A stretch of 64,000 nucleotides of DNA from an uncultured bacterium (lineage in GTDB: Bacteria; Krumholzibacteriota; Krumholzibacteriia; JACNKJ01), in the NCBI GenBank assembly GCA_963695095.1, contig CAVOFT010000001.1, forward strand, positions 2,667,849-2,731,848. Direction: 5' to 3'. Within the stretch, counting starts at the first letter, position 1. Every line of letters begins with the position of its first letter. Below, piece after piece: positions 21,598 to 43,395 of this stretch. The translations under genes were made by a program, and so were the position numbers. The notes beneath the pieces are model-generated. The model made no database searches. It saw only the letters and a list, made by a program, of their open reading frames with translations, and was not told where the DNA came from.

Positions 21598-22032
21598 TCA
21601 GCGAACGATGTAGCGATAGGGATCGTGAGCCCGCTCGAGCCAGCGCTCCCTGACCTTCACGCCGAAGAGCAGGGCCAGTCCGACGAGGAGACCGGCCGCC
21701 GAGCCGCGGAAGACCAGGGGGAGCGCCGGATCGCGCAAGACGGCAATGACGGCCGCCGCGAAGAGGATCAGGGCGCCGCCGCCGGCGAAGAACCAGCCCA
21801 GATGCAGGCCGGTGCGGGCGACCACGCTGCGGGACAGGGCCTCCAGCACTTCGTCCGCGGGATCCTTGATCCGGTAGCGACTGAGTTCGCGACCGAAGGC
21901 CTCCCAGCGCCGCAGTTCCTGGCGCAGCGCGGGATCCAGCGCGAGGGCGGCGTCGAGTTCGGCGGCCTCGCCGGGCGCCAGTTCGCCGTCGAGCTTGGCC
22001 ATCAAGAGCTGGCGGGCGCGATCGCTGTCCAT
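21598..22032 (-). CDS. Putative anti-sigma factor (cytoplasmic N-terminal helix plus single TM), immediately downstream of the ECF sigma gene.
   Basis: MDSDRARQLLMAKLDGELAPGEAAELDAALALDPALRQELRRWEAF... is an RskA/ChrR-like N-terminus. TM: LGWFFAGGGALILFAAAVIAVL. It sits 2 bp after the sigma gene. Confidence 0.5.
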   Translation of the reverse strand: MDSDRARQLLMAKLDGELAPGEAAELDAALALDPALRQELRRWEAFGRELSRYRIKDPADEVLEALSRSVVARTGLHLGWFFAGGGALILFAAAVIAVLRDPALPLVFRGSAAGLLVGLALLFGVKVRERWLERAHDPYRYIVR

Positions 22033-22033
22033 C

Positions 22034-22645
22034 TCAGGTCGCCTCCGAGGATTCGGCCAGGGCCGGGGCTTCGCCGCCCAGCCCGGCCTCGAGCGCCCCG
22101 CGCAGCGCCGCGCGGGCGTAGAAGAGTCGGCTCATCACCGTGCCCCGGGGAATGCGCAGCAGGGTGGCGATCTCCTGGTAGCTGAGGTCTCGGAAGTGGC
22201 GCAGGATGATGATCTCCCGGTGCTCATCGCTCAGCGTGCACAGGGCCGCCCAGAGCTTGTCTGCCCGCTCACTGGCGATCAGGGATTGCAGCGGACTGGT
22301 CTCGCGCCCGGCGGGATCGATGCCGCCATCGCTCTCGAGCACGAGTGGACACTCCCCGTGGCGCCCGCGCTTGGCGAGGAAATTGAAGCAAAGATTGCGC
22401 AGGATCCGATAGAACCAGGGGAAGAAGGGACGCTCCACGTCGAAGCTGTGCATGTGGGCCAGGGCGCGCAAGAAGGCCTCCTGAGTCAGGTCCCGGGCGT
22501 CCTCGAGGTCGCCGAGGAAACCGAGAGCGACCTGCAGGGCCTCCCGCCGGTGCTGGAGCACGAGGACGGCAAAGGCCTCGCGGTCGCCGTCCCGCGCGCG
22601 GCGGAGCAAGTTGGATTCGGGCTCCTGGCCGCGGGACGCCATCGC
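22034..22645 (-). CDS. ECF (sigma-70 family group 4) RNA polymerase sigma factor.
   Basis: Region 2 (LVLQHRREALQVALGFLGDLEDARDLTQEAFLRA..FFPWFYRILRN) and region 4 (LSDEHREIIILRHFRDLSYQEIATLLRIPRGTVMSRLFYAR) are both present. The likely start is MASRGQ. Confidence 0.8.
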   Translation of the reverse strand, partial: AMASRGQEPESNLLRRARDGDREAFAVLVLQHRREALQVALGFLGDLEDARDLTQEAFLRALAHMHSFDVERPFFPWFYRILRNLCFNFLAKRGRHGECPLVLESDGGIDPAGRETSPLQSLIASERADKLWAALCTLSDEHREIIILRHFRDLSYQEIATLLRIPRGTVMSRLFYARAALRGALEAGLGGEAPALAESSEAT

Positions 22646-22705
22646 TACCTCCCTCCCCGGCGGGAATTCGGAGTGTAGCCCATGTTTCAGCACCCCGCAA
22701 AAAAA

Positions 22706-22748
22706 AGAGCGGGTTGCTCAGGCCCGCTCAAAACTCACTAGGGGGGGG
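22706..22748 (-). terminator. Rho-independent terminator on the minus strand: GAGCGGG-CCTGAGCAA-CCCGCTC followed by TTTTTTTT.
   Basis: Plus strand reads aaaaaaaaGAGCGGGttgctcaggCCCGCTCaaaactc. The minus strand therefore has a perfect 7-bp GC stem, a 9-nt loop and an 8-T tail. It lies about 250 nt downstream of the HU gene and just upstream of the ECF sigma promoter region. Confidence 0.6.
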
Positions 22749-22937
22749 AATCGCGTCTCTCCAGGCCTGTCGTATCAAGTGGCGTGCCATTCGTTCCCGC
22801 TCGCCTAAAATGAAGCCAACACGGTGCGGCAGCAGCAGTTGATCCGGCGGCCGCGCCTACACCCCCGGCGGGCATCGTCTGGAGATGCCCCCCGTCGAGG
22901 GCAGTTGGGGCGCGAGCTGTCCACCTCCGGGGACTGC

Positions 22938-22978
22938 CCAAAATGCGCCGAGGCCATCCCAGCAGGACGGCCTCGGGC
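22938..22978 (-). terminator. GC hairpin directly 3' of the HU gene (GCGCCGAGGCC-N13-GGCCTCGGGCG) with a weak U-tract on the minus strand.
   Basis: Plus strand cgccgaggccatcccagcaggacggcctcgggcg. The minus strand follows it with ATTTTGGG. It is a weaker terminator than the one at about 22706. Confidence 0.3.
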
Positions 22979-22996
22979 GAAAGCATCAGCGGAAGA

Positions 22997-23290
22997 CTAG
23001 AGCGTCTCCTTCAGCGTGGTCGAGGGCTTGAAGCCGACGGTCTTGCTGGCCTTGATCGTGATCGCCTCGCCGGTCTGCGGATTGCGGCCGGTGCGAGCCT
23101 TGCGCTTGCGGACCGTCCAGGTGCCGAAGCCGGGGTAGGAGAAGCGGCGCTCCTTGCGAATGGTCTTGCCCATGATGTCGAAGCACGCGTCCACGACTTC
23201 GCCGCAGGCCTTCTTCGTGATTTCGCCGTTGACGCTCTTGCTGTTCCAGACGGCGTCGATCAGCTCAGCCTTGGTCATTCTAGCCACCAC
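22997..23290 (-). CDS. HU/IHF-family nucleoid-associated DNA-binding protein (97 aa).
   Basis: MVARMTKAELIDAVWNSKSVNGEITKKACGEVVDACFDIMGKTIRKERRFSYPGFGTWTVRKRKARTGRNPQTGEAITIKASKTVGFKPS shows the canonical HU fold signature (GFG..R.AR.GRNP.TGE.I.I). Confidence 0.85.
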   Translation of the reverse strand: MVARMTKAELIDAVWNSKSVNGEITKKACGEVVDACFDIMGKTIRKERRFSYPGFGTWTVRKRKARTGRNPQTGEAITIKASKTVGFKPSTTLKETL

Positions 23291-23329
23291 CTTTCAGGGG
23301 TCGGAGATTGCGGACAGGGATCGTCACGG

Positions 23330-23366
23330 GGCTCTATGTAGGCCAAGCCCGAAAACCTGACAAGCA
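23330..23366 (-). promoter_or_regulatory. Candidate sigma70-like promoter for the HU gene: TTGTCA-N17-TACATA (minus strand).
   Basis: Minus strand ...ttttgcTTGTCAggttttcgggcttggccTACATAgagcc..., about 50 nt upstream of the HU start. Confidence 0.3.
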
Positions 23367-23422
23367 AAATCTTCGCGGATCCGCACTGGAGGCGGATTGG
23401 CGGGGGTCGAGGTGCCGCGGAC

Positions 23423-23878
23423 CTAGGGCTCGCGCGACTTTCCGGGGTCGACCTCGGGCAGATCGTGGAGATCGCCCAGCGGATCGGAATCCATCGCGCG
23501 CTGGCGAAAGTCCACGGTGTTGCGGTCCCGCTGCCAGTGGGTGAGCAGGCCATTCTCGAAGAAGAGCCGCGCGATCACAGCCGGCTGACCCTCCCCCGGA
23601 TTCGGCTCGCGGAATTCGTAGACCCAGCGCTGCTCGTGCTCGGTCTTGATGCGCTGGAGCGGTCGTCCCCAGGCCAGGTAGACCTGGGTCGGATTCATCC
23701 CCTGCCGCAGTTCGCCGGCCTGGATGTTGTCGCGATAGGGATCGTCAGGGTAGAGGGCGAAGTAGCGGTCGCGCAGGGCGACGTGCTCGGGCGCTGCCGG
23801 CAAGGGACTGCGCAGCACCGGGCTGCAGGCCGGCATGCCCAAGGCAGCCAGGGCCAGGATGCTCAGCCAACGCCGCAT
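23423..23878 (-). CDS. Lipoprotein with SmpA/OmlA (BamE-like) domain.
   Basis: Signal and lipobox MRRWLSILALAALGMPAC. Then IQAGELRQGMNPTQVYLAWGRPLQRIKTEHEQRWVYEF resembles the BamE beta-alpha fold motif. Confidence 0.45.
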   Translation of the reverse strand: MRRWLSILALAALGMPACSPVLRSPLPAAPEHVALRDRYFALYPDDPYRDNIQAGELRQGMNPTQVYLAWGRPLQRIKTEHEQRWVYEFREPNPGEGQPAVIARLFFENGLLTHWQRDRNTVDFRQRAMDSDPLGDLHDLPEVDPGKSREP

Positions 23879-23915
23879 CGCGACCTCCCTCCGGATCCCC
23901 CCCGTCGATCCACGC

Positions 23916-25130
23916 TCAGTCTAGCGATTCGGCGGGAAGAAGCAAACCCAAAGTCGCCCGCTCGGGCAGCAACAGGCGCGCCGCCTCCTGGGCCAGGCTC
24001 TCCCGGGAAGCGGCCAGCGTCTGCTGCACGAATCGTTGGCGCCAGCGCGCGAAGTAGAGCGCTTCGCGCAGGACCTCGCGGCACCACAGCGAGAGGGCGC
24101 GCACACCGCCGTCGGCGGGCGGCGAGCCCTGACCTGCCGCGGCGTCGATGCGCGTGAAGAGCTGATCCTTGGCGGTGATCACCTGGTACTCGGAGAACTC
24201 GCCCTCCCGCAGGCGCTCGAGAACGCGCTCCACCCACGCCTCGAGCGCGGGCAATCGCTCGGGTTCGAAGCCGCGCAGCTGCAACTCGATCGGGCGCGGG
24301 CCCGGGCAGGCGAAGTCGTACCAGGCCGAGCCGGAGGCCACCAGGCCCGCAGCGCGCAGCTCGGTCTGGACGAAGAGATTCAGGACCCCCGCCAGCAGGG
24401 CGGCCGCGGGCGCGTCCTCGCTGTCTCCGGCCGGACCCGGGAAGTGATAGAGCAGCAAGGTCGGCGTCGCCGCCGCGCGCAGCAGCTCCCCGCCCTGGAC
24501 GGACTGGCTGGGCCGCGAGGGGAGAGGCAGGGGATGCCCGGGCAGGGCGTCGAATCGAGCCTGCCAGGCGTCCAGGAGCGGCTGCGCTTCGAGGTCGCCC
24601 GCCAGCAGCAGCACCAGGCCGCCTGCCTGATAGCGCTCGCCGAGAAAGCGCGCCAGATCCGCCCGCGGCGGCGTTGCCCCGGCGATGGCCAGCCTGCCCT
24701 CGCCCCCTGCGTAGGGGTGTCCGGCGAAGGCTGCCGCAGCCATGGCTTCGCGCAGGGCGAGCTCCGGCGAGGTGGCCGCGCGCGCCCAGTCGGCTTCCAG
24801 TCCCTCCCAGGCGGCCTCTAGATCCTCGGGTGCGAGGCTGGCCGGGTCTTGCAGTCGCTCGATGAGGAAACCCAGAACGGTCTCGAGGCCCCTGGCCGGG
24901 CCGAGCAGGGAGATCTCGGCGCTCTCGAGGCCGCAATGGCTCTCGACGCGCCAGCCCAGGCGGGCGAGGGCCGTCTCGAGCGCCTCCCCTTGCTCCCAGG
25001 TGGCCGAGGCGCCCAGGAAGGCGCGCGGCGCAAGCAGGGGCAGCAGCGGAGCCTCTGGGCTGCTGGTCAGGCCCGCCGGCAGCGCGAGGCAGATGCAGGC
25101 CAGACCCGGGCTGATGCCCCCCGCCAGCAC
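23916..25130 (-). CDS. M16 (pitrilysin/insulinase) family peptidase-like protein, probably the non-catalytic type; the N-terminal signal region may extend upstream of the listed start.
   Basis: Length, Leu/Ala-rich alpha/beta repeat pattern, and no HxxEH zinc motif in the translated frame. The track frame 23863..25755 (630 aa, Arg/Gly/Pro-rich) overlapping it is an alternative-frame artefact. Confidence 0.45.
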   Translation of the reverse strand: MLAGGISPGLACICLALPAGLTSSPEAPLLPLLAPRAFLGASATWEQGEALETALARLGWRVESHCGLESAEISLLGPARGLETVLGFLIERLQDPASLAPEDLEAAWEGLEADWARAATSPELALREAMAAAAFAGHPYAGGEGRLAIAGATPPRADLARFLGERYQAGGLVLLLAGDLEAQPLLDAWQARFDALPGHPLPLPSRPSQSVQGGELLRAAATPTLLLYHFPGPAGDSEDAPAAALLAGVLNLFVQTELRAAGLVASGSAWYDFACPGPRPIELQLRGFEPERLPALEAWVERVLERLREGEFSEYQVITAKDQLFTRIDAAAGQGSPPADGGVRALSLWCREVLREALYFARWRQRFVQQTLAASRESLAQEAARLLLPERATLGLLLPAESLD

Positions 25131-25285
25131 GACCCGCCCCCCCGCGGGCAGCCCGCGTTCCTCCCAGACCAGGGCGGCCAGCGGCCGCTCGGCCGCGCCG
25201 CCTAGGACGAGGACCGCGAGCGCCGCCGGCAGCAGGCGCGGCCAGCCGGAACGCCAGGACCTGGCGAGCTTCTGCGGGCGAAGTG

Positions 25286-26080
25286 TCAGGGTTGACTCCC
25301 GGGTTCAGGGTCGGCAGGTGGATCGGGATGGCGCAGCCCGTCCTCGAGCATGGCGAGGAAGGGCAGCAGCCAGGGGCGCAGACCATCCCGAGGCTTGCTC
25401 TGATAATCGGCTCTGACGGCGCGCAGGGCAAGGTAGTAGGCGGCGCCCGCCCGCTGGACGGCCGCTTCGCAGTAGAAGCCAGTGCCCTGCCAGCCCCTCC
25501 GCGCCAGCGCCGTGCTGAGGAGGCGACCCAGGCGACCGTTCCCATCCGCAAAGGGGTGGATGGACTGGAACTCGTAGTGGAAGCGGCCCGCCTGCAGGAA
25601 GGGATCCTCGCCGGGATCCAGGCTCTCCAGCAAGCCACCCAGCAGCTCCGGCACGCGCGCGGCGTGAGGCGGCGCGAAGACCTGCTCGCCGCGCTCGGGC
25701 CCGGCCGCGCGCACGATGCGCACGGCGTGCCGCCGGTAGCTGCCCGCCTCGGCACTCAGCCCCTGCATCAGCAGGCCGTGCAGGTGGCGCAGGAGGGCCT
25801 CGCGCCAGGGCAGGGCAGGCGGCTGGGCGTCGATGAAGTCGAGGGCGCGCAGGCAACCCAGCAGCTCGGCGTCGGCCAGATCCTGCGGCTTTCGCTCGCC
25901 GCGCAGGAGGGCACGCGCCGTGCGCCAGGGCAGCGGATTGCCTTCGATGCCGGCAGTGGCCCAGGCCGCGTAGTGACGCCGCCGGCGCAGGGCCGCCGCC
26001 GGCGCCGGGGCCCAGCCGGTCCGGAGCTCGGCCAATTCGGCGAGGCGCGCAGTGAGATCCACCCCTTGCTCCCCCGGCAT
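25286..26080 (-). CDS. Fic (Fido) domain protein, class II: an intramolecular inhibitory helix motif precedes the active site.
   Basis: Canonical Fic motif HPFADGNGRLGRLL (HxFx[DE]GNGRxxR). The N-terminal TAGIEGN matches the [ST]xxxE[GN] alpha-inh motif. Confidence 0.85.
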   Translation of the reverse strand: MPGEQGVDLTARLAELAELRTGWAPAPAAALRRRRHYAAWATAGIEGNPLPWRTARALLRGERKPQDLADAELLGCLRALDFIDAQPPALPWREALLRHLHGLLMQGLSAEAGSYRRHAVRIVRAAGPERGEQVFAPPHAARVPELLGGLLESLDPGEDPFLQAGRFHYEFQSIHPFADGNGRLGRLLSTALARRGWQGTGFYCEAAVQRAGAAYYLALRAVRADYQSKPRDGLRPWLLPFLAMLEDGLRHPDPPADPEPGSQP

Positions 26081-26156
26081 CAGGACACGCGGGCGACCCC
26101 GACGGGGCCGCCCGCAGCATGCTAGACCAGTGGCGGCGCTGAGACCAGCGCGTCCC

Positions 26157-26828
26157 TCAGGAGGCGAGGCGCTGCAGGCCGTCCACGGCCGCGATGGTGA
26201 TCTGCCGGCGATCGACGTCGATCAGGCGCTTGCGCCGGAACTGGTTGAGCGTCGCCGTGGTGGTCTCGCGCGTGGAGCCGATGAGCCCGGCCAGTTCCTG
26301 GTGAGTGATGCGGCCCCGCAGGCGATCGCCGTCTGCAGCCGGCTGACCGCTGCGGCTGGCGAGATCCAGGAGCAGGGCGGCCAGACGGGCCTTGACGTCC
26401 TTGAGCAGCAAGCGCTCGATCACCTGCTGGGAAGCGCGCAGCTTGTCGCCGAGAATCGCAACCAGGGCCATGCTCAGCCCGGGGTGTTCGGCCAGGAGCT
26501 GCTGCAGGCGAGCGCGTCCGATCAACATGACGCGGCTGTCTTCCATGGCCTGGGCACTGGCCTCCCGCTCGGAAATGCCCTGCAGGCACTCCAGGCCGCA
26601 GAGTTCACCGGCTTCCACCATGCCGAGGGTCAACTCGCGCCCGCTCTCCTGGATGCGGCTGAGCTTCAGACGACCCGAGAGGACCACGCAGAGGCCCTCG
26701 CAGGGTTCGCCCGGCAGGAAGAGGTAGCTGCCCCGCCGCAGGGTGGGCTGGGGACAGTCCAGGCTGAGGCGAAGCCTCTGCTTGGGGTCGAGAACGCCTA
26801 GGAAGTCCTGACTGGGGGTCGCGCTCAT
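26157..26828 (-). CDS. Crp/Fnr-family transcriptional regulator (cNMP-binding domain plus C-terminal HTH).
   Basis: Beta-roll region (LFLPGEPCEGLCVVLSGRLKLSRIQESGRELTLGMVEAGELCGLE) and HTH (ITHQELAGLIGSTRETTTATLNQFRRKRLI). Confidence 0.8.
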   Translation of the reverse strand: MSATPSQDFLGVLDPKQRLRLSLDCPQPTLRRGSYLFLPGEPCEGLCVVLSGRLKLSRIQESGRELTLGMVEAGELCGLECLQGISEREASAQAMEDSRVMLIGRARLQQLLAEHPGLSMALVAILGDKLRASQQVIERLLLKDVKARLAALLLDLASRSGQPAADGDRLRGRITHQELAGLIGSTRETTTATLNQFRRKRLIDVDRRQITIAAVDGLQRLAS

Positions 26829-27104: not shown

Positions 27105-27140
27105 CCCCGCATTGACAGATGGCTAGTATTAAGGTAAGAA
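27105..27140 (+). promoter_or_regulatory. Candidate sigma70-like promoter (TTGACA-N17-TAAGAA) in the low-GC intergenic region shared by the divergent Crp/Fnr and carD genes.
   Basis: cattgacagatggctagtattaaggtaagaactag, about 40-60 nt upstream of carD. The whole intergenic region 26880-27170 is about 50% GC. Confidence 0.25.
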
Positions 27141-27172
27141 CTAGTAATCGCCGTCCGAAAAATGGAGGCAGC

Positions 27173-27658
27173 ATGGATTTCGACCAGCAGGAATTCGTCG
27201 TCTATCCACGCTATGGAGTGGGACGCGTGCTCGGGGTAGCAAAGAAGGAGTTCGCGGGGCAGGCCGAGCGCTGCCTGGGCATCCGCTTCGAGGAGCAGAA
27301 TCTGGCGCTCTACATCCCGGTGCACCGTCTGGAACATGTCCGCCTGCGCAAGATCATGTCCCGCACGATGACGACCGAGGTGATGTCCGCCATGAAATCC
27401 CGGGCCCGCTTCGATACCAGCAACAGCCACAAGGAGCGGGTCAAGCGCTACCAGGAGAAGTTCAACACGGGCGACCCCGTGGAGATGGCCGAAGTGGCCC
27501 GCGACCTGGCCCGCCTGTCCAAGCGACAGGATCTCAGCATGGAGGAAGAGGGCCTGTGCCGGGACTCCATCAACCTCCTCGCCCGTGAGATCGCCATCAG
27601 CCGGAATGGCGATCCGCAGCGCATCCGCCGGGACATCGAGACCGTCCTCTACCGCTAG
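27173..27658 (+). CDS. carD: CarD/CdnL-family RNA-polymerase-binding transcription factor.
   Basis: MDFDQQEFVVYPRYGVGRVLGVAKKEFAGQAERCLGIRFEEQNLALYIPV is the CarD_CdnL_TRCF N-terminal domain, followed by a helical C-terminal domain. The track ORF starts 18 codons upstream. Confidence 0.85.
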   Translation: MDFDQQEFVVYPRYGVGRVLGVAKKEFAGQAERCLGIRFEEQNLALYIPVHRLEHVRLRKIMSRTMTTEVMSAMKSRARFDTSNSHKERVKRYQEKFNTGDPVEMAEVARDLARLSKRQDLSMEEEGLCRDSINLLAREIAISRNGDPQRIRRDIETVLYR

Positions 27659-27745: not shown

Positions 27746-29305
27746 ATGAATGCCAAGATCCACCTCGTCGAGCACAGCCGGCAGTCCTACAACTTCATGG
27801 TGGCCGCGGCCCGGAGTTGCTACTCGGCTCGCGGGCTCGTGACGCCTGAGCAGGTGGGAGCGGGCAGGCGGCAGGCTGTCCCCGCAGAGCGCTACGCGGC
27901 GCGGGACCGACTGGCCCTCAGCGTGTTCGAGGCCGGCCATCACACGACGCTGCAGCACGGACAGGTGCAATTCGCCCTGGAGGGCGTCAGCCGGCTCTTC
28001 ATCTGGAGCTTCCTGCATTCGCATCCCTTCTACAACTCGGAGCAGGTGAGCCAGCGCTACGTGCCGGTGGCCCCCGAGCACTACTACCGGCCGGCGCTTG
28101 CCGGGTCCGCGCTCGCGATCTACCGGGAGCAGGCGGAGCGCGCGGCTGCGGCCTACCGGGCCCTGGCCGCCCTGCTCGAGCCGCGCTGCCGCGAGCTCTA
28201 TCTCGAGCGCTTCCCTGCCCGCCGGCGCAGTCCACGCCTGGAGACGGATCCGACCAAGCTCGCCCTCGAAGCGGCCCGCTACGTGTTGCCCTTGGCCACG
28301 ACGGCCTACCTCTACCACACCGTGAGCGTGCTCACGCTCTTTCGCTACCAGCGCCTCGCCGAGCAGCGCGACGCCCCCGCCGAGACGCGCGCGGTGGTTG
28401 CGGCCATGGTGGCCGCGCTCCTCGCTGCCGAGCCCGAGTACGCGAAACTCCTGCAAGAGCCCCTGCCGCTTGCGGACACGCCGGAGGCCGGCTTCTTCGC
28501 CGCTCGCGAGGCGGCGCCCGGGGAGGCGGCGCGCTTCCGCGCGGCCTTCGACGCCGACCTGGCCGGCCGTCCCAGTCGCCTCGTCGCCGCCAGCGAGCCC
28601 GCGGAAGCCTTGGTCGCCGACGCCGTGCGCGAGGTGCTGGGGCTGCCCGCCAGTGCACTCGCCGACGAGGAGGCCATCGCGCTCTGCCTCGACCCCACCC
28701 GCAATCGCCTCTGGGGTGAGACGCTCAACCTCGCCACGATGGACCGCCTCGCTCGACCCCTGCACCACGTGCACTACAGCTTTCGCCGCCGGATCAGCCA
28801 CGCGGCCGACAGCCAGGACCAGCGCCACCGGATGACGCCGGCCAGCCGCCCCTCGCTGCTCAGCCAGGAGGACGGCCAGCCGGACTACATCACGCCCCGC
28901 CTCATCGAGCAGCTGCCCGCCGCCGAGCGCCTCTACCGGGAGACGATGGAACGCACCTGGGACGCCGTCGCGCGCTTCCGCGCCGCCGGGGGCAGCGCCG
29001 AGGACGCCCTCTACCTGCTCCCCAACGCGAAGTGCCTCCGCTACACGGAGAGCGGCGACCTGCTCAACTTCCGCCACAAGGCGGCGATGCGCCTTTGCTA
29101 CAACGCGCAGGAGGAGATCTGGCGGCTGACCTGGGAAGAGGCGCGTCAGGTCCGCGAGCGTCACCCCACCCTGGGCCGCTACCTCTTGCCGCCCTGTGGG
29201 CAGCGGCAGCTCGCCGGCAGTCACCCGCTCTGCCCCGAGGGCGAGCGCTACTGCGGCGTTCCGGTGTGGCGCCTGGCCTTCGCGGACTACGACCGGGTCC
29301 TCTGA
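27746..29305 (+). CDS. thyX: Tandem-duplicated flavin-dependent thymidylate synthase (ThyX-like), 519 aa. The first repeat is degenerate; the second carries the RHR-X7-S signature.
   Basis: Second half: ...FRRRISHAADSQDQRHRMTPASRPSLLSQ (RHR+7+S ThyX motif). First half: ...SVFEAGHHTTLQHGQVQFALEGVSRLFIWSFLHSHPFYNSEQVSQRYV is a ThyX-like fold with RHR replaced by HSH. The ORF is intact. Confidence 0.65.
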   Translation: MNAKIHLVEHSRQSYNFMVAAARSCYSARGLVTPEQVGAGRRQAVPAERYAARDRLALSVFEAGHHTTLQHGQVQFALEGVSRLFIWSFLHSHPFYNSEQVSQRYVPVAPEHYYRPALAGSALAIYREQAERAAAAYRALAALLEPRCRELYLERFPARRRSPRLETDPTKLALEAARYVLPLATTAYLYHTVSVLTLFRYQRLAEQRDAPAETRAVVAAMVAALLAAEPEYAKLLQEPLPLADTPEAGFFAAREAAPGEAARFRAAFDADLAGRPSRLVAASEPAEALVADAVREVLGLPASALADEEAIALCLDPTRNRLWGETLNLATMDRLARPLHHVHYSFRRRISHAADSQDQRHRMTPASRPSLLSQEDGQPDYITPRLIEQLPAAERLYRETMERTWDAVARFRAAGGSAEDALYLLPNAKCLRYTESGDLLNFRHKAAMRLCYNAQEEIWRLTWEEARQVRERHPTLGRYLLPPCGQRQLAGSHPLCPEGERYCGVPVWRLAFADYDRVL

Positions 29306-30543
29306 GGCCGCGCCGGGCTCAGCGCCTCGGCGAGGAGCTCGGCGGGATGCTGCACCGCGACAGGACTGCCCGCGCGAGCGAGGGCCGCCTCCCACTGCAG
29401 GCGGCAGCCGGGGTTGGCACTCAGCAGCGTATCGGCCTCGGTGCCGGCGAGATCCTCCAGCTTGCTGTCGATCATCGCCCGGGAGAGCAGCGGCTCGCGC
29501 AGGAAGTAGCTGCCGCCTGCGCCACAGCAGCGCTCCGCGTGCGGAAGCTCCACCCGCTCCAGACCGGCCACAGCGTCGAGCAGCGCGCGCGGCCCGGCCG
29601 CGATCCCCTGCGCATGGACGGCGTGGCAGGCATCGTCGTAGCTGACGCGGCGCGGCGCCGGCAGACGCAGGGCGCCGAGCTCGGCGGGGCTCACGCACTC
29701 GCTCCAGTCCCGCACGCGAGCGCTGAAGCGGGCCGCGGGCTCAGCCCAGTCCGGGTCCTCGGCCAGCCAGTGGGCGTACTCCTTGAGCGCAGCTCCGCAG
29801 CCGGCCGATCCCGTCACGATCGGGACCTCGTCGCCCTCGGCCGCGCAGGCGGCGATGTTCCTGCGGGCCAGGCGCAGGGAGCCCTCGATGTCGCCCAGAT
29901 GCCTGGCCAGGGCGCCGCAGCAGGTCCAGCCCGCGGGCAGGGCGTAGCCGCCGCCGGCATCCAGCAGGCGCAGCAGCGCCGCCTCCGTCGCCGGAAAGAG
30001 CAGGCCCTCGACGCAGCCCGGGAAGTAGAGCTGGGGGGCCGCAGGCCGCGGCGGCGGCGGGGCGGCCGGGCGCGGCAGGCGCCGCGGCAGCCAGGCCAGG
30101 CCGCGCAGGGCGCCGAGGCCCGGCAGGGGCGCGAGCCGCGCGAGCAGGCGCGGCAGACGGAGCCAGATGGCGATGCGCAGGGGCGCGCGCAGGCGGCGCA
30201 GGCGCTCCGGATGGGCGATGAAGACCTCCAGCGCCCAGCGCGAGACCAGCGAGAGCCCGCCGCGCCGCTCGCGCAGGCGGGCCTGCGCGCGGTCGAGCAT
30301 GCCCGCGTAGGGCACGCCGGCCGGGCAGCGCGCCTGACAGGCCAGGCAGCCCACGCAGTGATCGAGGTGGACCTCCCAGGACTCGCGTTCGGGCGAGGCC
30401 TGGGCGAGCAGTTCCATGAGACGAATGCGGCCGCGCGGCCCCTCGGCCTCCTCGCGTCCGATGTCGTAGGTGGGACAGACCTCCAGGCAGAGGCCGCAGT
30501 TCACGCATTCGAGCAGGTCGAAGGGCCGGCTGAACTCAGCCAA
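29287..30543 (-). CDS. glcF: Glycolate oxidase iron-sulfur subunit GlcF-like protein (2x[4Fe-4S] ferredoxin N-terminus plus two CCG domains).
   Basis: CVNCGLCLEVCP, CVGCLACQARCP, and C-terminal Cys-rich CCG motifs (GCVEGLLFP...TCCG..., PGCRLQ). It lies downstream of glcD and glcE. Confidence 0.7.
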   Translation of the reverse strand: MAEFSRPFDLLECVNCGLCLEVCPTYDIGREEAEGPRGRIRLMELLAQASPERESWEVHLDHCVGCLACQARCPAGVPYAGMLDRAQARLRERRGGLSLVSRWALEVFIAHPERLRRLRAPLRIAIWLRLPRLLARLAPLPGLGALRGLAWLPRRLPRPAAPPPPRPAAPQLYFPGCVEGLLFPATEAALLRLLDAGGGYALPAGWTCCGALARHLGDIEGSLRLARRNIAACAAEGDEVPIVTGSAGCGAALKEYAHWLAEDPDWAEPAARFSARVRDWSECVSPAELGALRLPAPRRVSYDDACHAVHAQGIAAGPRALLDAVAGLERVELPHAERCCGAGGSYFLREPLLSRAMIDSKLEDLAGTEADTLLSANPGCRLQWEAALARAGSPVAVQHPAELLAEALSPARPQRTRS

Positions 30544-31738
30544 AGAGCCACCTCCCCGGCGCCAGGCGGGCCTCGGGGTCGAGAGCCCGGGCCACGCGCT
30601 CGAGGAAGGCGGAACCGACGAGCCCCTGGAAGCTGGCCTGCCCTTCGGCGCTGCGGGCCCCCAGCTCGGCGCGGCGCAGCAGCAGGCTGCCCGTGGCCAA
30701 GGGCTGTTGGCCCTCGCGGAAGTCGGACGAGGGCTCGCTGCGCAGGCGCCGGCCCGGAAAGTCCAGCGCCCAGCGCGGCCCGATCGCGGGCACCAGGGCC
30801 AGCAGGCGCTCGAGAGCGCCTCGGTACTCTCGAAGCGCCGGGCGCGGCTCGAGCAAACCGCTGCTGGGGAAATCGCGGATGGCGCGCAACCAGGGACCCT
30901 GGTCGATCCCCTCGCGCGCCGTGATCACCGGCAGGAGGCCCTCCTCGCCGAGGAGCGCGAGCAGCCGTCCTTCCTGCTCCTCGATGGCGGCGGCGCGACC
31001 TTCCAGGCCGAAGACGAGGTGCAGGGCCGGCTCGAGGCCCTCGAGCTCGAGCCCGGGGCCGAGCAGCAGCTGGCCGGCAGGGAAGTCGCAGCGCCGGAAG
31101 AGCAGGCGCCCGGCCGCCACTGCCCGTTCCGGGAGACGGTAGCCCAGGACGAGCAAACGGCGCGCCTCGGGCCGCGGCCGCGTGCGCAGGCGCAGACGCG
31201 TGAGAATCGCCAGGGCGCCGCGGCTGCCGGCCATGAGTCGGCAGAGATCGTAGGCGGTGACGTTCTTCATCACCCGCCCCCCGCCGACGAAGGGGCTCCC
31301 ATCGCTGAGCAGGCCGGCGACCCCGAGCAGCCGGTCGCGGGGACTGCGCTGGCCCCCGCGCCAGGGCCAGGATTCGTCGCAGGCGACGACGCCGCCCACG
31401 CTGCGCTGTTCGGGATGCGAAACCTGCCAGTCGAGTTCACGGTCGTCGGCGGCGAGGGCGGCCTGCACGTCGATCCAGGGCGTGCCGGCCGCGACCTCCA
31501 CGAAGAAGTCCGCGCGGGAGTGCTCGAGGACCCCCCGCAGGGAGGCCGTCGACAGCAGCCACTGGGCGGGCCCCGGCAGGGGCGGCAGCTCCTCGAGCAG
31601 GCGGGCGCCCGTCGGGTAGAGCAGCTTGCCGCGGCCGGCGCGGTCTTCGAGCAGGCGAGCAAGCTCGTCCGCGGCCTCGGGGCGGAACAGCCGCGGCGCC
31701 TCCTCGCCCTCGCTGCTGCCGGCCCGCGTGGTCACCAC
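30536..31738 (-). CDS. glcE: Glycolate oxidase FAD-binding subunit GlcE-like protein.
   Basis: FAD_binding_4-like region (GGGRVMKNVTAYDLCRLMAGSRGALAILTRLRLRTRP) and its position between glcD and glcF. Confidence 0.6.
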   Translation of the reverse strand: MVTTRAGSSEGEEAPRLFRPEAADELARLLEDRAGRGKLLYPTGARLLEELPPLPGPAQWLLSTASLRGVLEHSRADFFVEVAAGTPWIDVQAALAADDRELDWQVSHPEQRSVGGVVACDESWPWRGGQRSPRDRLLGVAGLLSDGSPFVGGGRVMKNVTAYDLCRLMAGSRGALAILTRLRLRTRPRPEARRLLVLGYRLPERAVAAGRLLFRRCDFPAGQLLLGPGLELEGLEPALHLVFGLEGRAAAIEEQEGRLLALLGEEGLLPVITAREGIDQGPWLRAIRDFPSSGLLEPRPALREYRGALERLLALVPAIGPRWALDFPGRRLRSEPSSDFREGQQPLATGSLLLRRAELGARSAEGQASFQGLVGSAFLERVARALDPEARLAPGRWLFG

Positions 31739-31761
31739 GCGCAGGGGATGGCCGCCGGGTT

Positions 31762-33180
31762 TCAGATCGGCGGGGGAAAGATCTTGCCCGGATTCAGGAT
31801 GCCCCGCGGATCGAGGGCCTTCTTGAGCCGCAGGTGCGGCTCGCGGTCGGCGAGGCTCAGGGCGCGCGGCAGGTAGGCCGCCTTCTCGATGCCGATGCCG
31901 TGCTCCCCGCTCAGGGTGCCGCCCAGTTCGACGGCGAGATCGGCGAGGCCCTCGTTGAGCCGGTGCAGTCGGCTCAGCTGGGCCGGGTCCTCGCGATCGA
32001 AGCCGATGTTGGGGTGAAGATTGCCGTCGCCGGCGTGGAAGACGTTGGCCACCGGCAGCTCGTGGGCGGCGGCGAGTTCGCCCACGCGGCGGATGGCCTC
32101 GGGCAGACGGCTGATCGGCACGCAGATGTCCTGCACGACGATGTCGCGGTAGAGCCGCCCCAGCGCGCCGAAGGCGCCCTTGCGGCCGCGCCAGAGCAGC
32201 TTGCGCTCGGTCGGATCCGTCGCCTCGCGCAGCCAGAGGGCGCCCTCGGCCGCCAGCAGGCTCGCCAGTTCCGCGCGCTCGGTGGCGACCTGGCCCGGCA
32301 GGCCGTCGAGTTCGACGAGCAGCACGGCCTCGGCCTCGGCCGGGTAGCCCGCGCGAAAGACCGAACCCTCGACGGCGCGCAGGGCCTCCCGGTCGAGGAT
32401 CTCCAGGGCGGCGGGCCTGAGGCCCCGCTCGAGGATGCGGCTCACGACGGCGCAGGCCGCCTCCAGGCTGGCGTAGGGCGCGAGCAGCGTCGCCACGGCC
32501 TCCGGCAGCGGCGTGAGCGCGAGTTCCATGGCCGTCACCAGCGCGAGCGTGCCCTCGCTGCCCGTCAGCAGGCCGACGGCGTCCAGGGGGTCGCCGCCCG
32601 GCGATCCGCTCCCCAGGCGGTGCTGCGTGCCGCGATCATCGACGATCTCCAGACCCAGCACGTGCTGCGTGGTGACGCCGATCTTGAAGCAATGGGGACC
32701 GCCCGCGTTCTCGGCGACGTTGCCGCCGAGAGTGGCCACGGTCTGGCTGCTGGGGTCCGGCGCAAAGCAGAGCCCGGCCGGAGCGAGCGCCTCCTGCAGC
32801 TCGCGGTTGACGAGACCGGGTTCCACCCAGGCGCGGCGCGAAGCGGCATCCCAGCTCAGGATGCGGCGCATGCGCGTGAAGGCGACGAGCAGGCCGCCCT
32901 CCAGGGGCACGGCGCCACCGGAGAGGCCGGTGCCGGCGCCGCGGGCGGTGAGCGGCAGCCCCTCTTCGGCGGCCAGCTTGACGATGGCCGCGCACTGCTC
33001 GGCGTTGCGCGGCAGCAGCACGAGGTCGGGCGCACGCCGATAGAGGCGCTGGCTGTCGCTCTCGTAGAGCGAGCGCAGGGCCGGCGACTCCAGCAGGTCC
33101 CCCGCCGCGAGCAGGCGCCGGAGTTCCCTGCGGACCCGCTCGATCACGGCCTGTCGCCCCGCGTCGGATCGCAGAGGCTC
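31762..33180 (-). CDS. glcD: FAD-linked oxidase GlcD-like protein (glycolate/D-lactate dehydrogenase family).
   Basis: ARGAGTGLSGGAVP, GLCFAPDPSSQTVATLGGNVAENAGGPHCFKIGVTTQHVLGLEIV, C-terminal HAGDGNLHPN and LSGEHGIGIEKAAYL. The N-terminal about 55 codons of track ORF 31762..33348 are over-extension. Confidence 0.8.
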   Translation of the reverse strand, partial: EPLRSDAGRQAVIERVRRELRRLLAAGDLLESPALRSLYESDSQRLYRRAPDLVLLPRNAEQCAAIVKLAAEEGLPLTARGAGTGLSGGAVPLEGGLLVAFTRMRRILSWDAASRRAWVEPGLVNRELQEALAPAGLCFAPDPSSQTVATLGGNVAENAGGPHCFKIGVTTQHVLGLEIVDDRGTQHRLGSGSPGGDPLDAVGLLTGSEGTLALVTAMELALTPLPEAVATLLAPYASLEAACAVVSRILERGLRPAALEILDREALRAVEGSVFRAGYPAEAEAVLLVELDGLPGQVATERAELASLLAAEGALWLREATDPTERKLLWRGRKGAFGALGRLYRDIVVQDICVPISRLPEAIRRVGELAAAHELPVANVFHAGDGNLHPNIGFDREDPAQLSRLHRLNEGLADLAVELGGTLSGEHGIGIEKAAYLPRALSLADREPHLRLKKALDPRGILNPGKIFPPPI

Positions 33181-34988
33181 ACCCAGTCGCCGCTGAGCAG
33201 GCTGACGACGGGCCCGCCGGGCTCCAGGCGGCCGAGCGCGACCGGGGACTCGATCTGGTCGAAGCCGGCGATGAGGGTCGCCGTCGTCCCCGACCAATCG
33301 AGGGCATAGCCCATCACGCGGGTCTGCCCGACCAGGCGCCCCCACCATTCGTCGCCGCCCGCGCTGAAGCGGCCGAGGCTCATGAATTCGGGCAGCGTGA
33401 TGCTCGTCTGCGCGGCGAAGTCGCCGGCGTCGATGCGCTGCAGCGAGCTCGCGGCCACGTAGGCGAGCAAGAGGCCGCCGGCGCCGTCGAGCTGGAGGGC
33501 GATCGGGAAGCCGGGCAGATCGATGCTCTCGGCGAGGAAGGGCGAGCCCGTCAGGTCCACGCGCAGCAGGCGCAGGTTGCCGCCGGTCTCGGCGACGAAG
33601 AGCTGCTTGCCGTCGGGATCGGCGGCGAGCCGGCTGCCGGGGCTCAGGCTGCCCAGGAAGTCCAGGGTGTCCAGGGGCAGGAAGTTCAGGACGTCGTAGA
33701 GCACCGGAGCGCCGCCCGCGGCCGGCGCGAGGATGAGGCTGTCGCCCCCCAGCCAGGCGAGCGCGCCGGGCAGCAGCGCCGCGCTGCCCTCGCGCAGCAG
33801 CGCCAGCGGATCGCTGTCCAGGAGCTGCAGCGTGGCCTGCTGCCCGCCGGCGGCCGCGGCGGCCCAGAGGCGGCCGTCCGGCAGCGGCAGGATGACGGCG
33901 GGCGAGGCGCCGAGCGTGAGCGAATCCCGGGCGACGCCCTGGCCGTCGACGCTGAGCAGGCGCCCGCCGCTGTCATCGGCCAGCAGGAAGCGATCGCCGC
34001 CGGTCGGGAAGACCAGGCTTCTCTCCTCGGCATCGAGGCCGGCGAAGCGCTGCGCCGCGGCTCTGACATGGCAGAGCCCCAGCGGGCTCGTCGCCTGGCC
34101 CTGGCTGTCCAGCGTGTAGAGGCGATAGGTGTAGACCGCGTTGGCGGCCACGGCGAGGTCGGTGAAGAGCGTATCCGCCGGATCCGCGCTCGCGAAGACG
34201 AGCAGGTCGAGACTGTCGGCCGTGCTATCGCCCGTGTCACGGTAGAGGCGATAGCCGGCGAAGTCCGCGTCCGCGTTCGCGGCCCAGCGCAGGGGGATCC
34301 GCGCGTAGTCGCCCGTGGGCTGGAAGCGCAGGCGCGAGGCCGCGGGCGGCGCGTCGATGGCGGCCGTCACCGTGAGCGCAGCGCTCAGATTGCCCGAGGG
34401 ATCGATGCTGGCCAGCGTGTAGATGTAGTCGCGCTCCGGGGCGATGGCGATGTCCAGCCACGCGTTCACCGCGATGTCGAAGCGCTGCGCCTGCGGGTCG
34501 CCCGGGCTCTTGGTCACCCAGTAGCCGTCCAGGTCGCTGCTGTCGGCCGGGGCCGTCCAGACGAGGCGCAGGAACTCGCCCCCCACGCTCTGGACGCTGA
34601 AGCTCAGCGGCGCCGGCGGCGGCGTCACATCGAAGGGCAGCAGGGCGAAGCTCTGCTGCTCGTCCGCCTCGCCGAGTTCGACCCAGCGGCTCTCGGCGGC
34701 GAAGCCCGGCAGGCTGACGCGCAGGCTGTCGGCGCCGGTCGCCGTCGGGGCGAGGGTGTAGCTGCCGTCGGCGGCGCTGGTCGCGCTCAGCCCGCCCCAG
34801 CTCAGCGTGGCGCCGGCCAGCGGCACTTCCGGATTGAGGCGCTGGTAGATGGCGCCCTGCAGGCGCCCCGGGGCGACCTGCTCGGGCGGGGTGACCTTGC
34901 CGCTCTCGTCGCAGGCGCTGATCAGCGCGGCGAGAGCAAGCAGCGAGAGGGCAGCGGCGGACAGGATTCGGCGCGGCGGCGTGCTCAT
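33144..34988 (-). CDS. Large lipoprotein with carboxypeptidase-regulatory-like, fibronectin-III-like and beta-propeller-like regions.
   Basis: MSTPPRRILSAAALSLLALAALISAC (lipobox), then repeated beta-rich modules (VTPPPAPLSFSVQSVGGEFLRLVWTAPADSSDLDGYWV..., ...AGYRLYRDTGDS...). Confidence 0.45.
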   Translation of the reverse strand: MSTPPRRILSAAALSLLALAALISACDESGKVTPPEQVAPGRLQGAIYQRLNPEVPLAGATLSWGGLSATSAADGSYTLAPTATGADSLRVSLPGFAAESRWVELGEADEQQSFALLPFDVTPPPAPLSFSVQSVGGEFLRLVWTAPADSSDLDGYWVTKSPGDPQAQRFDIAVNAWLDIAIAPERDYIYTLASIDPSGNLSAALTVTAAIDAPPAASRLRFQPTGDYARIPLRWAANADADFAGYRLYRDTGDSTADSLDLLVFASADPADTLFTDLAVAANAVYTYRLYTLDSQGQATSPLGLCHVRAAAQRFAGLDAEERSLVFPTGGDRFLLADDSGGRLLSVDGQGVARDSLTLGASPAVILPLPDGRLWAAAAAGGQQATLQLLDSDPLALLREGSAALLPGALAWLGGDSLILAPAAGGAPVLYDVLNFLPLDTLDFLGSLSPGSRLAADPDGKQLFVAETGGNLRLLRVDLTGSPFLAESIDLPGFPIALQLDGAGGLLLAYVAASSLQRIDAGDFAAQTSITLPEFMSLGRFSAGGDEWWGRLVGQTRVMGYALDWSGTTATLIAGFDQIESPVALGRLEPGGPVVSLLSGDWVSLCDPTRGDRP

Positions 34989-37220: not shown

Positions 37221-38627
37221 TCACTTGAGAAGCACGAGGCGCGCACTCGTCGTGCCCGCCGCCGTCTCGGCCCGCGCAAAGTACAGGCCACCCGGCAGAT
37301 CCTCCGGTCGCCAGACGAACTCGCGCCGTCCCGCCGGCTGGACGCCCTCGTGGAGCGTCGCCACGCGGCGGCCCAGCGCGTCGTGGATGCTGAGGCTGAG
37401 GGCACCCGCTAGGGGCAGTTCGAGCACGAGCGTTACCGCCGGATTGAAGGGGTTCGGCCAGGCGGCGAGACGGAGGGCCGCGGCCGGCGGCGTCTGGGCG
37501 GTCGTCGAGCCGCCGGGCATCACGATGTCGAAGGGCGGCAGGCCCAGGTTGATCGCGGGGCTGAGCAGCTCGCCCGTGGCGGCGGCGTAGACGCGCAGGC
37601 CCTCGGCGCCGAGCCTGCGGTCGGCGAGGAAGAGCTCGCCCGCCCCGTCCAGCTCCATGTCCGTGAAGTCGTAGCCCGTGCCCGTGGCCAGGGTGCCGAG
37701 CAGCGCGCCCGTGCTCGGGTTGAAGCGCTTCACGCGCGTGACGAAGGCGGCGTCGGCGACGATGGCGTAGGCCAGTGCTTCGCTCACCCAGACCACATCG
37801 ACGAGGTCGCCGCCCAGGGTGCTCTCGGTGACGCAGTGGCCCAGGCTCGCGAGCGCGACCGGGTCCACCAGCTCGACGCCGCCGTCGGCGAGGCCGTAGT
37901 AGCCCACGCAGGCGCAGGCGATCGACGCGCCCGCCCGCCCCAGCTCCCAGGTCGGATTCGCACCCTGCAGCGCGATGGCCTGCACGCCGGCCTGCCCGGG
38001 GTCGCAGTCCACGAGCGTGTCGGTCGCCATGTCGATGACGGCCAGGTAACTGTCGCCGACCGGTGCCCAGTAGAAGTCGCGGTCCAGGCGCAGGATGGCC
38101 ACGAAGAGCAGCCCGTCCACGGCGATGCAATCGCCCGGCTCGCAGGAGCCGTCGGCGTCCGCCCAGGCCGAGAGGTCGATGGCGCCCAGCCAGGCGCCCG
38201 TCGCGGGGTTCATGATCAGCACGTCGTCCGCGTTCTGGCGCGGCAGGTAGGCCTTGGCGCCATCGGGACTGAAGGCCACGGCCTGCGGGTTGGTCGCCGT
38301 GCCCACCGAGAACTCGTGGAGAGTGGCAAAGTCCTGCGCGGGGTCGAGCACCTGCAGGTTGTCCGCACCATAGCGATTGACGATGTAGACGAGCCCGCCA
38401 TGCGCGCGGCCCACGGCGTCCGCGTGGACGGTCGCCACGTCGCGCGTGGCGGTCCAGGGCGCATTCGATTCGCAGACGCTGAACTTGCCGGTCACCCAGT
38501 CCGTGCAGACGGCGCCCACGAAGGGCTGGGCGGGCGCGGGCGCCGCGGCGGCCGCGACGATGAGGGCGATGGCGAAGGCGCAAAGGTGCGGGCGCATGGG
38601 AGTCCTCCTAGCGGGTCGGCAGGTCAC
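37221..38627 (-). CDS. Secreted beta-rich protein carrying a C-terminal T9SS/Por-secretion-type sorting domain.
   Basis: Signal peptide (LCAFAIALIVAAAAAPAPAQP). The C-terminus ...LAAWPNPFNPAVTLVLELPLAGALSLSIHDALGRRVATLHEGVQPAGRREFVWRPEDLPGGLYFARAETAAGTTSARLVLLK is the canonical Por_Secre_tail pattern (PNPF.P.T.I.F.LP......L.I.D..GR.V..L.....G.....W.G.D..G....SGVYF.RL......K). Confidence 0.6.
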   Translation of the reverse strand: MTCRPARRTPMRPHLCAFAIALIVAAAAAPAPAQPFVGAVCTDWVTGKFSVCESNAPWTATRDVATVHADAVGRAHGGLVYIVNRYGADNLQVLDPAQDFATLHEFSVGTATNPQAVAFSPDGAKAYLPRQNADDVLIMNPATGAWLGAIDLSAWADADGSCEPGDCIAVDGLLFVAILRLDRDFYWAPVGDSYLAVIDMATDTLVDCDPGQAGVQAIALQGANPTWELGRAGASIACACVGYYGLADGGVELVDPVALASLGHCVTESTLGGDLVDVVWVSEALAYAIVADAAFVTRVKRFNPSTGALLGTLATGTGYDFTDMELDGAGELFLADRRLGAEGLRVYAAATGELLSPAINLGLPPFDIVMPGGSTTAQTPPAAALRLAAWPNPFNPAVTLVLELPLAGALSLSIHDALGRRVATLHEGVQPAGRREFVWRPEDLPGGLYFARAETAAGTTSARLVLLK

Positions 38628-40762: not shown

Positions 40763-40834
40763 GATCAGCGGGGAGACCGTGCGTGCGCACGCCCCTCACT
40801 CCTTCCACGAGAGTGCCGGAACGAGGGTCGGGGC

Positions 40835-40995
40835 AGGTCTCCTGACTTACGGGGGGCCGAAGCCCTCGCGACCGCCGCCTTCCCAGTTTCCCAGTGGCGT
40901 CGTGGCGGTCTCCCGATCACAGTGGCGGGACCGTGGCGGCTTCACACCGCGCTTCCCTATTCTACCCTTGGGCGGACGCCCGCGGGTCACCACCG
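40835..40995 (-). promoter_or_regulatory. Cobalamin (AdoCbl) riboswitch in the 5' leader of the TonB-dependent receptor gene.
   Basis: Minus-strand sequence ...AATAGGGAAGCGCGGTGTGAAGCCGCCACGGTCCCGCCACTGTGATCGGGAGACCGCCACGACGCCACTGGGAAACTGGGAAGGCGGCGG... contains the conserved AGGGAA, GGTG.GAA.CC, CGGTCCCGCCACTGT (B12-box GCCACTG) and GCCACTGGGAA..GGGAAGGC elements in canonical order, about 80-230 nt upstream of the receptor start codon. Confidence 0.8.
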
Positions 40996-41058
40996 ACCCT
41001 GAACGCCGCCGAGCATAGCGCCATTGCGCACGGGCGGCAAGTCGCTTTCTTGGGGCGC

Positions 41059-43385: not shown

Positions 43386-43395
43386 GGGGTGCAGC

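Follow-up and report, generated by a model that had tools for sequence, protein, structure and literature searches.

A widespread tandem-domain flavin-dependent thymidylate synthase, as predicted from the division of ThyX active-site residues between two fused halves

Overview

The gene discussed here, thyX, lies on a contig of an uncultured bacterium of the Krumholzibacteriota (GenBank assembly GCA_963695095.1, contig CAVOFT010000001.1), within a stretch of 64,000 nucleotides that was analysed as a whole and is called the window hereafter. It encodes one chain of 519 amino acids with two ThyX domains in tandem, and it most probably represents a functional flavin-dependent thymidylate synthase (ThyX, also FDTS) of a widespread tandem subfamily; we place the probability of this reading, by which the two halves have lost complementary residues and the protein would work as a dimer with two active sites, at roughly 0.75. 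Judged from the alignments, every dUMP (deoxyuridine monophosphate)-binding and catalytic residue of canonical ThyX is present once per chain, and the RHR-X7-S signature of the family is split between the halves. The two domains, the pattern of conservation that divides them, a compact fold modelled with confidence and a wide distribution among bacteria form the basis of this account; the assignment of residues to monomers follows published structures of two canonical enzymes, and from it we infer the dimeric state, the number of sites and the enzymatic activity.

Gene and domain architecture

The gene and its domains are arranged as follows.

27746-29305, forward strand: thyX, tandem-domain form; intact open reading frame (519 amino acids; coordinates include the stop codon) with two Thy1 matches and full-length relatives at 51-95% identity
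27764-28435, forward strand: N-terminal Thy1 domain (residues 7-230); in a separate scan, 102 bits over profile positions 2-190 of 191; hhalign probability of 86% against Thermotoga maritima ThyX
28436-28579, forward strand: linker joining the two Pfam envelopes, residues 231-278, helical in part; modelled helices at 246-253 and 260-271, with a predicted local distance difference test score (pLDDT) of at least 90
28580-29170, forward strand: C-terminal Thy1 domain (residues 279-475); in a separate scan, 79 bits over profile positions 2-191 of 191

The reading frame begins with ATG and has no internal stop; its G+C content at third codon positions is 0.91, similar to that of the other real genes of the window, and this value fits a real gene, given the overall G+C content of about 72%. 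Regarding its domains, Thy1 (PF02511) matches the protein twice, at residues 7-230 and 279-475, with 170 bits for the whole chain. When the halves were scanned separately (residues 1-270 and 271-519), both exceeded the Pfam gathering score of 24.8 bits, so the N half is not an unrelated domain; in fact, it is the better match of the two, with 102 bits against 79. A preliminary description of this DNA, made from the letters alone, had proposed two ThyX folds in one 519-residue chain encoded by a single gene; the uninterrupted frame, the full-length relatives found throughout, the two Thy1 matches and the structural results given below all bear it out.

The two halves are strongly diverged from each other, with an hhalign probability of only 6%, and their direct alignment with MAFFT was misregistered; each half was instead mapped separately onto T. 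maritima ThyX. The query carries all the signatures of the tandem subfamily, namely GHHT..QH, HxHPFYNSEQxSQRY, DSQDQRHR, MRLCYNAQEEIW and PPC..CPEG..YCG, which are conserved across 201 close family members and 114 diverse representatives (at most 50% identity); likewise, two Thy1 domains in a chain of this size agree with the length of about 500-545 amino acids of that subfamily.

Active-site residues in the two halves

Canonical residues are numbered after T. maritima ThyX, for which the sequence used was checked against PDB 1KQ4 and found identical over 220 residues. The mapping combined profile alignments, ungapped spacing from anchor residues and the secondary-structure elements of an AlphaFold2 model, and conservation was counted column by column in the two sets just mentioned; counts are given below first for the 201 close members and then for the 114 diverse ones. 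The segments concerned are the following.

27935-27958, forward strand: GHHTTLQH, residues 64-71, N half; aligns with T. maritima GHETPFEH, H65 being the equivalent of H53
28016-28060, forward strand: N-half counterpart of the ThyX motif, HSHPFYNSEQVSQRY, residues 91-105 (H91-S92-H93 ... S102-Q103-R104-Y105); motif arginines gone, Ser-x-Arg-Tyr kept
28268-28279, forward strand: E175-A-A-R178, N half; equivalents of T. maritima E144 and R147 by hhalign
28808-28855, forward strand: D355-S-Q357-D-Q-R360-H361-R362-MTPASRP-S370, C half; Q357 is the Q75 equivalent, R360-R362 the RHR triad and S370 the 'X7-S' position
29087-29122, forward strand: M448-R449-L-C451-YNAQEEIW, C half; hhalign sets MRLCYNAQEEIW against T. 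maritima LRADSHAQWEIQ, R449 being the R174 equivalent

As for the N half, it retains the histidine that stacks on flavin and folate: H65, the equivalent of H53, is His in all members of both sets (201/201 and 114/114). In the motif itself, R78-H79-R80 of T. maritima is replaced by H91-S92-H93 with the loss of both arginines; H91 is nevertheless kept in 201/201 and 112/114 members, and H93 is invariant in the close relatives (201/201) and present in 84/114 of the diverse ones. The residues that follow are those of the canonical enzyme or nearly so: S102 (S88 equivalent; 201/201, 114/114), Q103 (G89 equivalent; 201/201, 113/114), R104 (R90 equivalent; 201/201, 114/114) and Y105 (Y91 equivalent), which is Tyr in 201/201 close members and Tyr or Phe in 111/114 diverse ones. 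This motif, FLHSHPFYNSEQVSQRYV, is the best-conserved stretch of the entire protein. Further along the chain, E175 (201/201, 113/114) and R178 (201/201, 114/114) are equally well kept; R147, to which R178 corresponds, we take to be a ligand of the dUMP phosphate. The column equivalent to R174 falls at position 205, which is Ala in the query and Cys, Ala, Ser or Val in the close set, with Arg in 0/201. R203, another candidate for this equivalence, was ruled out because Arg occurs there in just 62/114 diverse members.

The C half has the opposite complement. Its H53 equivalent is L335, so that the flavin-stacking histidine is lost; Q357, the equivalent of Q75, is present in 201/201 and 112/114 members, and R360, H361 and R362 are each found in 201/201 close members and in 113, 107 and 113 of the 114 diverse ones, respectively. 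R449, corresponding to the arginine that activates dUMP, sits in the near-invariant MRLCYNAQEEIW and is conserved in 201/201 and 111/114 members. The equivalent of R147, in turn, is L422, at a variable position. Past the RHR triad, just 22/201 close and 9/114 diverse members have Ser at position 370, the others showing Ile, Val, Leu or Ala, mostly the first three; position 371 is mostly Leu, 372 and 373 are variable, and the Gly/Gln-Arg-Tyr expected at these equivalents of G89, R90 and Y91 is missing.

The RHR-X7-S signature is spelled literally in one domain here, at residues 360-370 of the C half, but its serine is not conserved in the subfamily, and the conserved Ser-Gln-Arg-Tyr stands in the N half beside H-S-H. 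According to the preliminary description, only the second half had an intact motif. The strings that it quoted are all in place (GHHTTLQH at 64-71, the N-half segment at 91-105 and RHRMTPASRPS at 360-370) and the literal spelling holds; what does not hold is an intact, self-sufficient C half, given that S370 is unconserved and that Gly/Gln-Arg-Tyr, the R147 equivalent and the flavin-stacking histidine are absent. Nor can the N half be described as degenerate or regulatory, as had been suggested, with its motif the most conserved of the protein and with S102-Y105, H65 and R178 invariant or nearly so.

Structure model and proposed assembly

AlphaFold2, run with an alignment of 121 sequences, returned a single compact two-domain model with a mean pLDDT of 92.7, a predicted template modelling score (pTM) of 0.90 and no segment below 50, in which one order of secondary-structure elements occurs twice along the chain; a pTM of this size for a two-domain chain suggests that the relative orientation of the halves is fixed. 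When the model was compared with the PDB by Foldseek, all matches were single-domain ThyX chains, each covering about half of the query, with a probability of 1.00 for the top matches and a target-normalised template modelling score (TM-score) of 0.6-0.75 (about 0.7); they came from M. tuberculosis, T. thermophilus, C. glutamicum, Paramecium bursaria chlorella virus 1 (PBCV-1), T. maritima and Streptomyces PolB, and this search of the PDB found no structure of a tandem ThyX.

The canonical active site is built by several subunits. In PBCV-1 ThyX, Gln-75 and Arg-182 (strictly conserved), both of monomer A, meet Ser-88 and Gln-89 from monomer B in one shared pocket (PMC3498832); in the reduced T. 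maritima enzyme, H53 is supplied by 'monomer-3' of the active site (PMC11940539); and, as for the roles of the residues, R174 activates dUMP, and S88, R90 and Y91 help to transfer the methylene group (PMC8316439). The complementary retention of residues in the tandem protein, taken with these published monomer assignments, suggests that a fused dimer mimics the tetramer and has two complete sites.

By this account, an ancient internal duplication would have fused two ThyX subunits, and after the fusion the halves would have lost complementary portions of the active-site set. The C half would retain the contribution of monomer A, that is, Q357, R360-R362 and R449; the N half would retain that of monomer B, S102-Q103-R104-Y105, and also that of the third monomer, H65. 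R178, of the R147 type, is tentatively added to the partner contribution of the N half on the basis of its co-retention and of the T. maritima complex. Two fused chains would then form a pseudo-tetramer N1-C1/N2-C2 with 222 symmetry, holding two complete sites for flavin adenine dinucleotide (FAD), dUMP and folate, each composed of C + N + N', instead of four; the two sites related to these by symmetry (N + C + C') would be inactive. A dimer of pseudo-dimers with half the number of catalytic sites had already been proposed from the letters alone, and the residue audit is consistent with it.

Role in the host

The completeness of the residue set, the single and housekeeping-like nature of the gene, and the tandem relatives in phyla that have ThyX but no ThyA together indicate that the tandem protein is the real thymidylate synthase of its host, this activity being a predicted one. 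In a table based on COGs, ThyX is present and ThyA absent in Acidobacteria and in most Chlorobi and Chloroflexi (PMC5954106), and Chloroflexi, except Dehalococcoides, are reported to have only ThyX, with a domain duplication (PMC3224940). The relatives recovered here from Acidobacteria, Chlorobi and Chloroflexi are tandem forms.

A further indication comes from inteins, which typically occupy essential motifs. Two metagenomic relatives, P0140 (840 amino acids) and P0141 (821 amino acids), have an intein of family PF14890 precisely between the residues equivalent to N97 and S98 of the N-half motif, in the arrangement HSHPYYN / intein / SEQASQRY, and P0274 (531 amino acids), from the same cluster, is without it; inteins at this point suggest that the N-half motif is functional.

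Cysteine-rich tail

Beyond the second Thy1 domain, the chain ends in a tail specific to the family.

29189-29269, forward strand: C-terminal tail PPC484-x11-C496-PEG-x3-C503-G-x3-W; putative metal site together with C451 (29096-29098)

The tail has no Pfam match and is mostly coil, yet it is modelled with a pLDDT of 90-98. C451 is two residues past the catalytic R449 and is conserved in 200/201 and 109/114 members; C484, C496 and C503 are each found in 201/201 close members and in 109-110 of the 114 diverse ones, and the four cysteines are specific to the tandem subfamily. Four near-invariant cysteines suggest a metal site, for which structural zinc is the conservative interpretation, although an iron-sulfur cluster may be the alternative; no description of a zinc or iron-sulfur site in the tail of a tandem ThyX appears in the literature searched. 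If the metal centre were present, whether zinc or a redox-active iron-sulfur cluster, and were combined with a repurposed H-x-H-P pocket, the tandem enzyme might be mechanistically distinct, with electron entry or regulation unlike that of ThyX enzymes relying on NADPH only, which we consider doubtful.

Alternative explanations

Several points weigh against a functional synthase with two sites per dimer. How the halves are arranged, the dimeric state and the number of sites are inferred, and no assayed member of the tandem form could be confirmed. The equivalence of PBCV-1 Arg-182 and T. maritima R174, on which part of the monomer assignment depends, is our own reading of the two numberings. 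Close relatives keep the H91-x-H93-P segment of the N half unchanged despite the loss of the arginines, and the proposed assembly leaves this segment unexplained. Finally, the whole protein scores 79.9 bits with TIGR02170, the NCBIfam equivalog model of thyX, under its cut-off of 87.9, in a model built on single-domain enzymes.

The low score with the equivalog model, along with the PolB structures among the fold matches, could be taken to mean that the protein is a paralogue with the ThyX fold acting on another substrate, dTMP (deoxythymidine monophosphate) being made by a thyA located elsewhere in the genome. PolB, indeed, is a UMP/dUMP methylase with the ThyX fold. Such a paralogue is very unlikely, however: each chain has one copy of every canonical dUMP-binding and catalytic residue, the gene has the look of a single housekeeping gene and lies in no conserved biosynthetic neighbourhood, and the phyla carrying the tandem form are mostly without ThyA. 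The conserved H91-x-H93-P segment leads instead to the idea that all four pockets are used, the second pair, made of this segment and of C-half residues, having been repurposed as a site for NADPH or another reductant or as an allosteric nucleotide site, with the four cysteines perhaps in the electron path. The invariance of H91 and H93 in close relatives and the subfamily-specific cysteines are in line with this, as is the lack of a dedicated NADPH domain in canonical ThyX (PMC3498832); still, the C-half positions expected around the second pocket, 370-373 and 422, vary, which speaks against a ligand site kept by selection, H93 is retained less well among diverse members, and the metal and the second ligand are hypothetical, so that we regard it as unlikely.

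The literal RHR-X7-S of the query and the absence of both motif arginines from the N half would also suit a simpler scheme, in which catalysis falls to the C half as a complete ThyX unit, the N half being a degenerate partner with a regulatory or purely structural role. This is rather improbable, because Ser at position 370 is the exception in both sets, the C half lacks conserved equivalents of H53, R90, Y91 and R147, and it is the N half that scores higher with Thy1 and holds the most conserved segment. As for an assembly or frameshift artefact joining two adjacent thyX genes, to which only the unusual length might point, it is refuted by the occurrence of the same single-frame architecture in hundreds of independent genomes and metagenomes, and the linker is structured and confidently modelled; its probability is negligible. 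The functional synthase with complementary halves remains the preferred interpretation.

Distribution

Among the candidates scored in a word-indexed search of 5.8 billion proteins, 4650 matched at E ≤1e-5. The best 120 relatives are all 510-585 amino acids long and cover 97-100% of the query; those with names are labelled 'FAD-dependent thymidylate synthase' or 'thymidylate synthase ThyX', and the named sources among these 120 include Chloracidobacterium thermophilum, Acidobacteriota, Planctomycetes, Armatimonadetes, Krumholzibacteria, Leptospirillia and Sumerlaeaceae. When GTDB species were scanned with one genome each, a relative was encoded at 570 of the 600 pattern matches listed, hence in at least 570 genomes; 80 loci were kept, in which the match extends over essentially the whole protein, mostly residues 4-519. 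The phyla among the matches listed include Acidobacteriota, Planctomycetota, Chloroflexota, Nitrospirota, Chlorobi (Prosthecochloris), Ignavibacteriales, Kryptoniota, Bacteroidota, Verrucomicrobiota, Armatimonadota, Sumerlaeota, Myxococcota, Gemmatimonadota, Neomarinimicrobiota, FCPU426 and some Proteobacteria. When 1.84 billion cluster representatives (50% identity) were searched exhaustively with HMMER, 277 clusters were recovered at E ≤1e-30, mostly of 480-560 amino acids. The nearest genome among the matches listed is a metagenome-assembled genome (MAG) of an uncultured bacterium (L001), with 74% identity, and a metagenomic protein (P0001) reaches 95%.

Members of distant clusters (P0201, P0206, P0262 and P0290) come from MAGs labelled Nanoarchaeota, Thaumarchaeota and Patescibacteria and keep both the split motif and the four cysteines, which suggests an old origin or extensive horizontal transfer. 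One sequence, P0267 (L081, 806-1543; 245 amino acids), consists of the N half only, with a stop 130 bp short of the end of a 1.7-kb contig of 1.5x coverage; a sequencing error and a form split into two genes are equally open to be its cause.

Comparison with known enzymes

Each half of the query shares the Thy1 fold with the canonical single-domain enzymes, such as those of T. maritima (TM0449, PDB 1O26), M. tuberculosis (Rv2754c, PDB 2AF6) and PBCV-1 (A674R). The equivalents of H53, Q75, R78-H79-R80, S88, R90, Y91, R147 and R174 are all present in the query chain, and the chemistry, judging from these residues, is presumably the same, with FAD, NADPH, methylenetetrahydrofolate (CH2-THF) and dUMP giving dTMP. 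Nonetheless, canonical ThyX is a homotetramer with four sites, whereas the query is predicted to be a dimer with two; it consists of two fused and diverged halves, each with part of the residue set, and it has the added Cys-rich tail.

The same architecture, with no difference in kind, was reported in 2009 by Valas and Bourne, who found a domain-duplicated ThyX in Chloroflexi and 'a few other species' and termed it uncharacterised and rare (PMC3224940); the Chloroflexota relatives among the matches listed here (L013, L016, L018 and L075) have 52-54% identity over the full length. In contrast with the rarity stated in that paper, the form is very common, with no fewer than 570 species genomes and 277 clusters (50% identity) containing it. 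It was the sole paper mentioning the form that was found in the open-access literature searched, and several ThyX reviews and phylogeny papers leave tandem forms unmentioned. Thus, the fused form is not the unusual one that the preliminary description took it for: the tandem architecture is common, annotated and noted in print since 2009, and the query is one further member of a subfamily whose structure and biochemistry have received little study.

Two enzymes studied earlier may belong here as well. The Chlamydia trachomatis ThyX assayed by Griffin and co-workers in 2005 is said to be a long two-domain form of about 530 amino acids, which would make it a biochemically assayed member, and the Trichodesmium erythraeum ThyX of Liu and Yang (2004) is reportedly also about 530 amino acids long, two-domain and intein-bearing, with 'distinctive ThyX motifs'. 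The inteins of P0140 and P0141 are consistent with the latter, reported intein; no Chlamydia or Trichodesmium names were found among the cluster look-ups of tandem relatives. An analogy, not a homology, can be drawn with the single-chain LAGLIDADG endonucleases, in which the subunit of a homo-oligomer was duplicated and fused and the copies then diverged asymmetrically; their folds and functions are unrelated to those of the tandem ThyX.

As a gene, this thyX is a routine housekeeping thymidylate synthase, and the remaining value lies with the subfamily. The complementary split of the motif is a natural experiment that gives independent support to the published assignment of residues to monomers, and the enzyme that it predicts is asymmetric, with two active sites. 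ThyX is a target for antibacterials, and apparently several large phyla, Chlamydia included, depend on the tandem form as their sole thymidylate synthase. Only the split motif and the four-cysteine tail might be worth following up; solving a structure of one member and analysing its metal content would add something real, if modest.

Genomic surroundings

The two genes flanking thyX are the following.

27119-27658, forward strand: carD, 87 bp upstream of thyX on the same strand; PF02559 (CarD_TRCF_RID) and PF21095 (CarD_C)
29287-30543, reverse strand: glcF-like iron-sulfur subunit, first gene of a convergent cluster; CCG and Fer4; its 3' end overlaps that of thyX by 19 bp

The gene next to thyX is indeed carD, as had been stated, with the two domains given above. 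Among the matches listed, only the two nearest genomes (L001 and L002) share this adjacency, which is without evident functional meaning; across the 80 loci no neighbour of thyX is conserved, and only spurious overlapping reading frames recur. The absence of thyA from the window, also stated before, agrees with tblastn searches of the 64 kb with E. coli ThyA and FolA, which gave no match (best E-values of 2.7 and 1.4), and a scan for promoters and terminators around thyX returned nothing useful.

On the reverse strand upstream (21598-26828) are genes for an anti-sigma factor of the zf-HC2 type, an extracytoplasmic function (ECF) sigma factor, BamE, an M16-like peptidase, a Fic-domain protein and a Crp-family regulator; downstream, on the same strand (29287-33348), there is a trio resembling glcF, glcE and glcD of glycolate oxidase, with CCG and Fer4, FAD_binding_4, and FAD_binding_4 with FAD-oxidase_C, respectively. 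None of these genes bears on thyX. BamE and a TonB-dependent receptor suggest a diderm host; the gene of this receptor (38624-40762, reverse strand) has a cobalamin riboswitch directly upstream (RF00174, 85 bits; 40815-41010, reverse strand), in an ordinary BtuB-type layout. Lastly, adjoining genes at 42537-44859 (forward strand) encode a protein with an iron-sulfur domain of the dihydroorotate dehydrogenase B (DHOD-B) type and an NAD(P)H oxidoreductase similar to GltD and dihydropyrimidine dehydrogenase (Fer4_20 and Pyr_redox_2).

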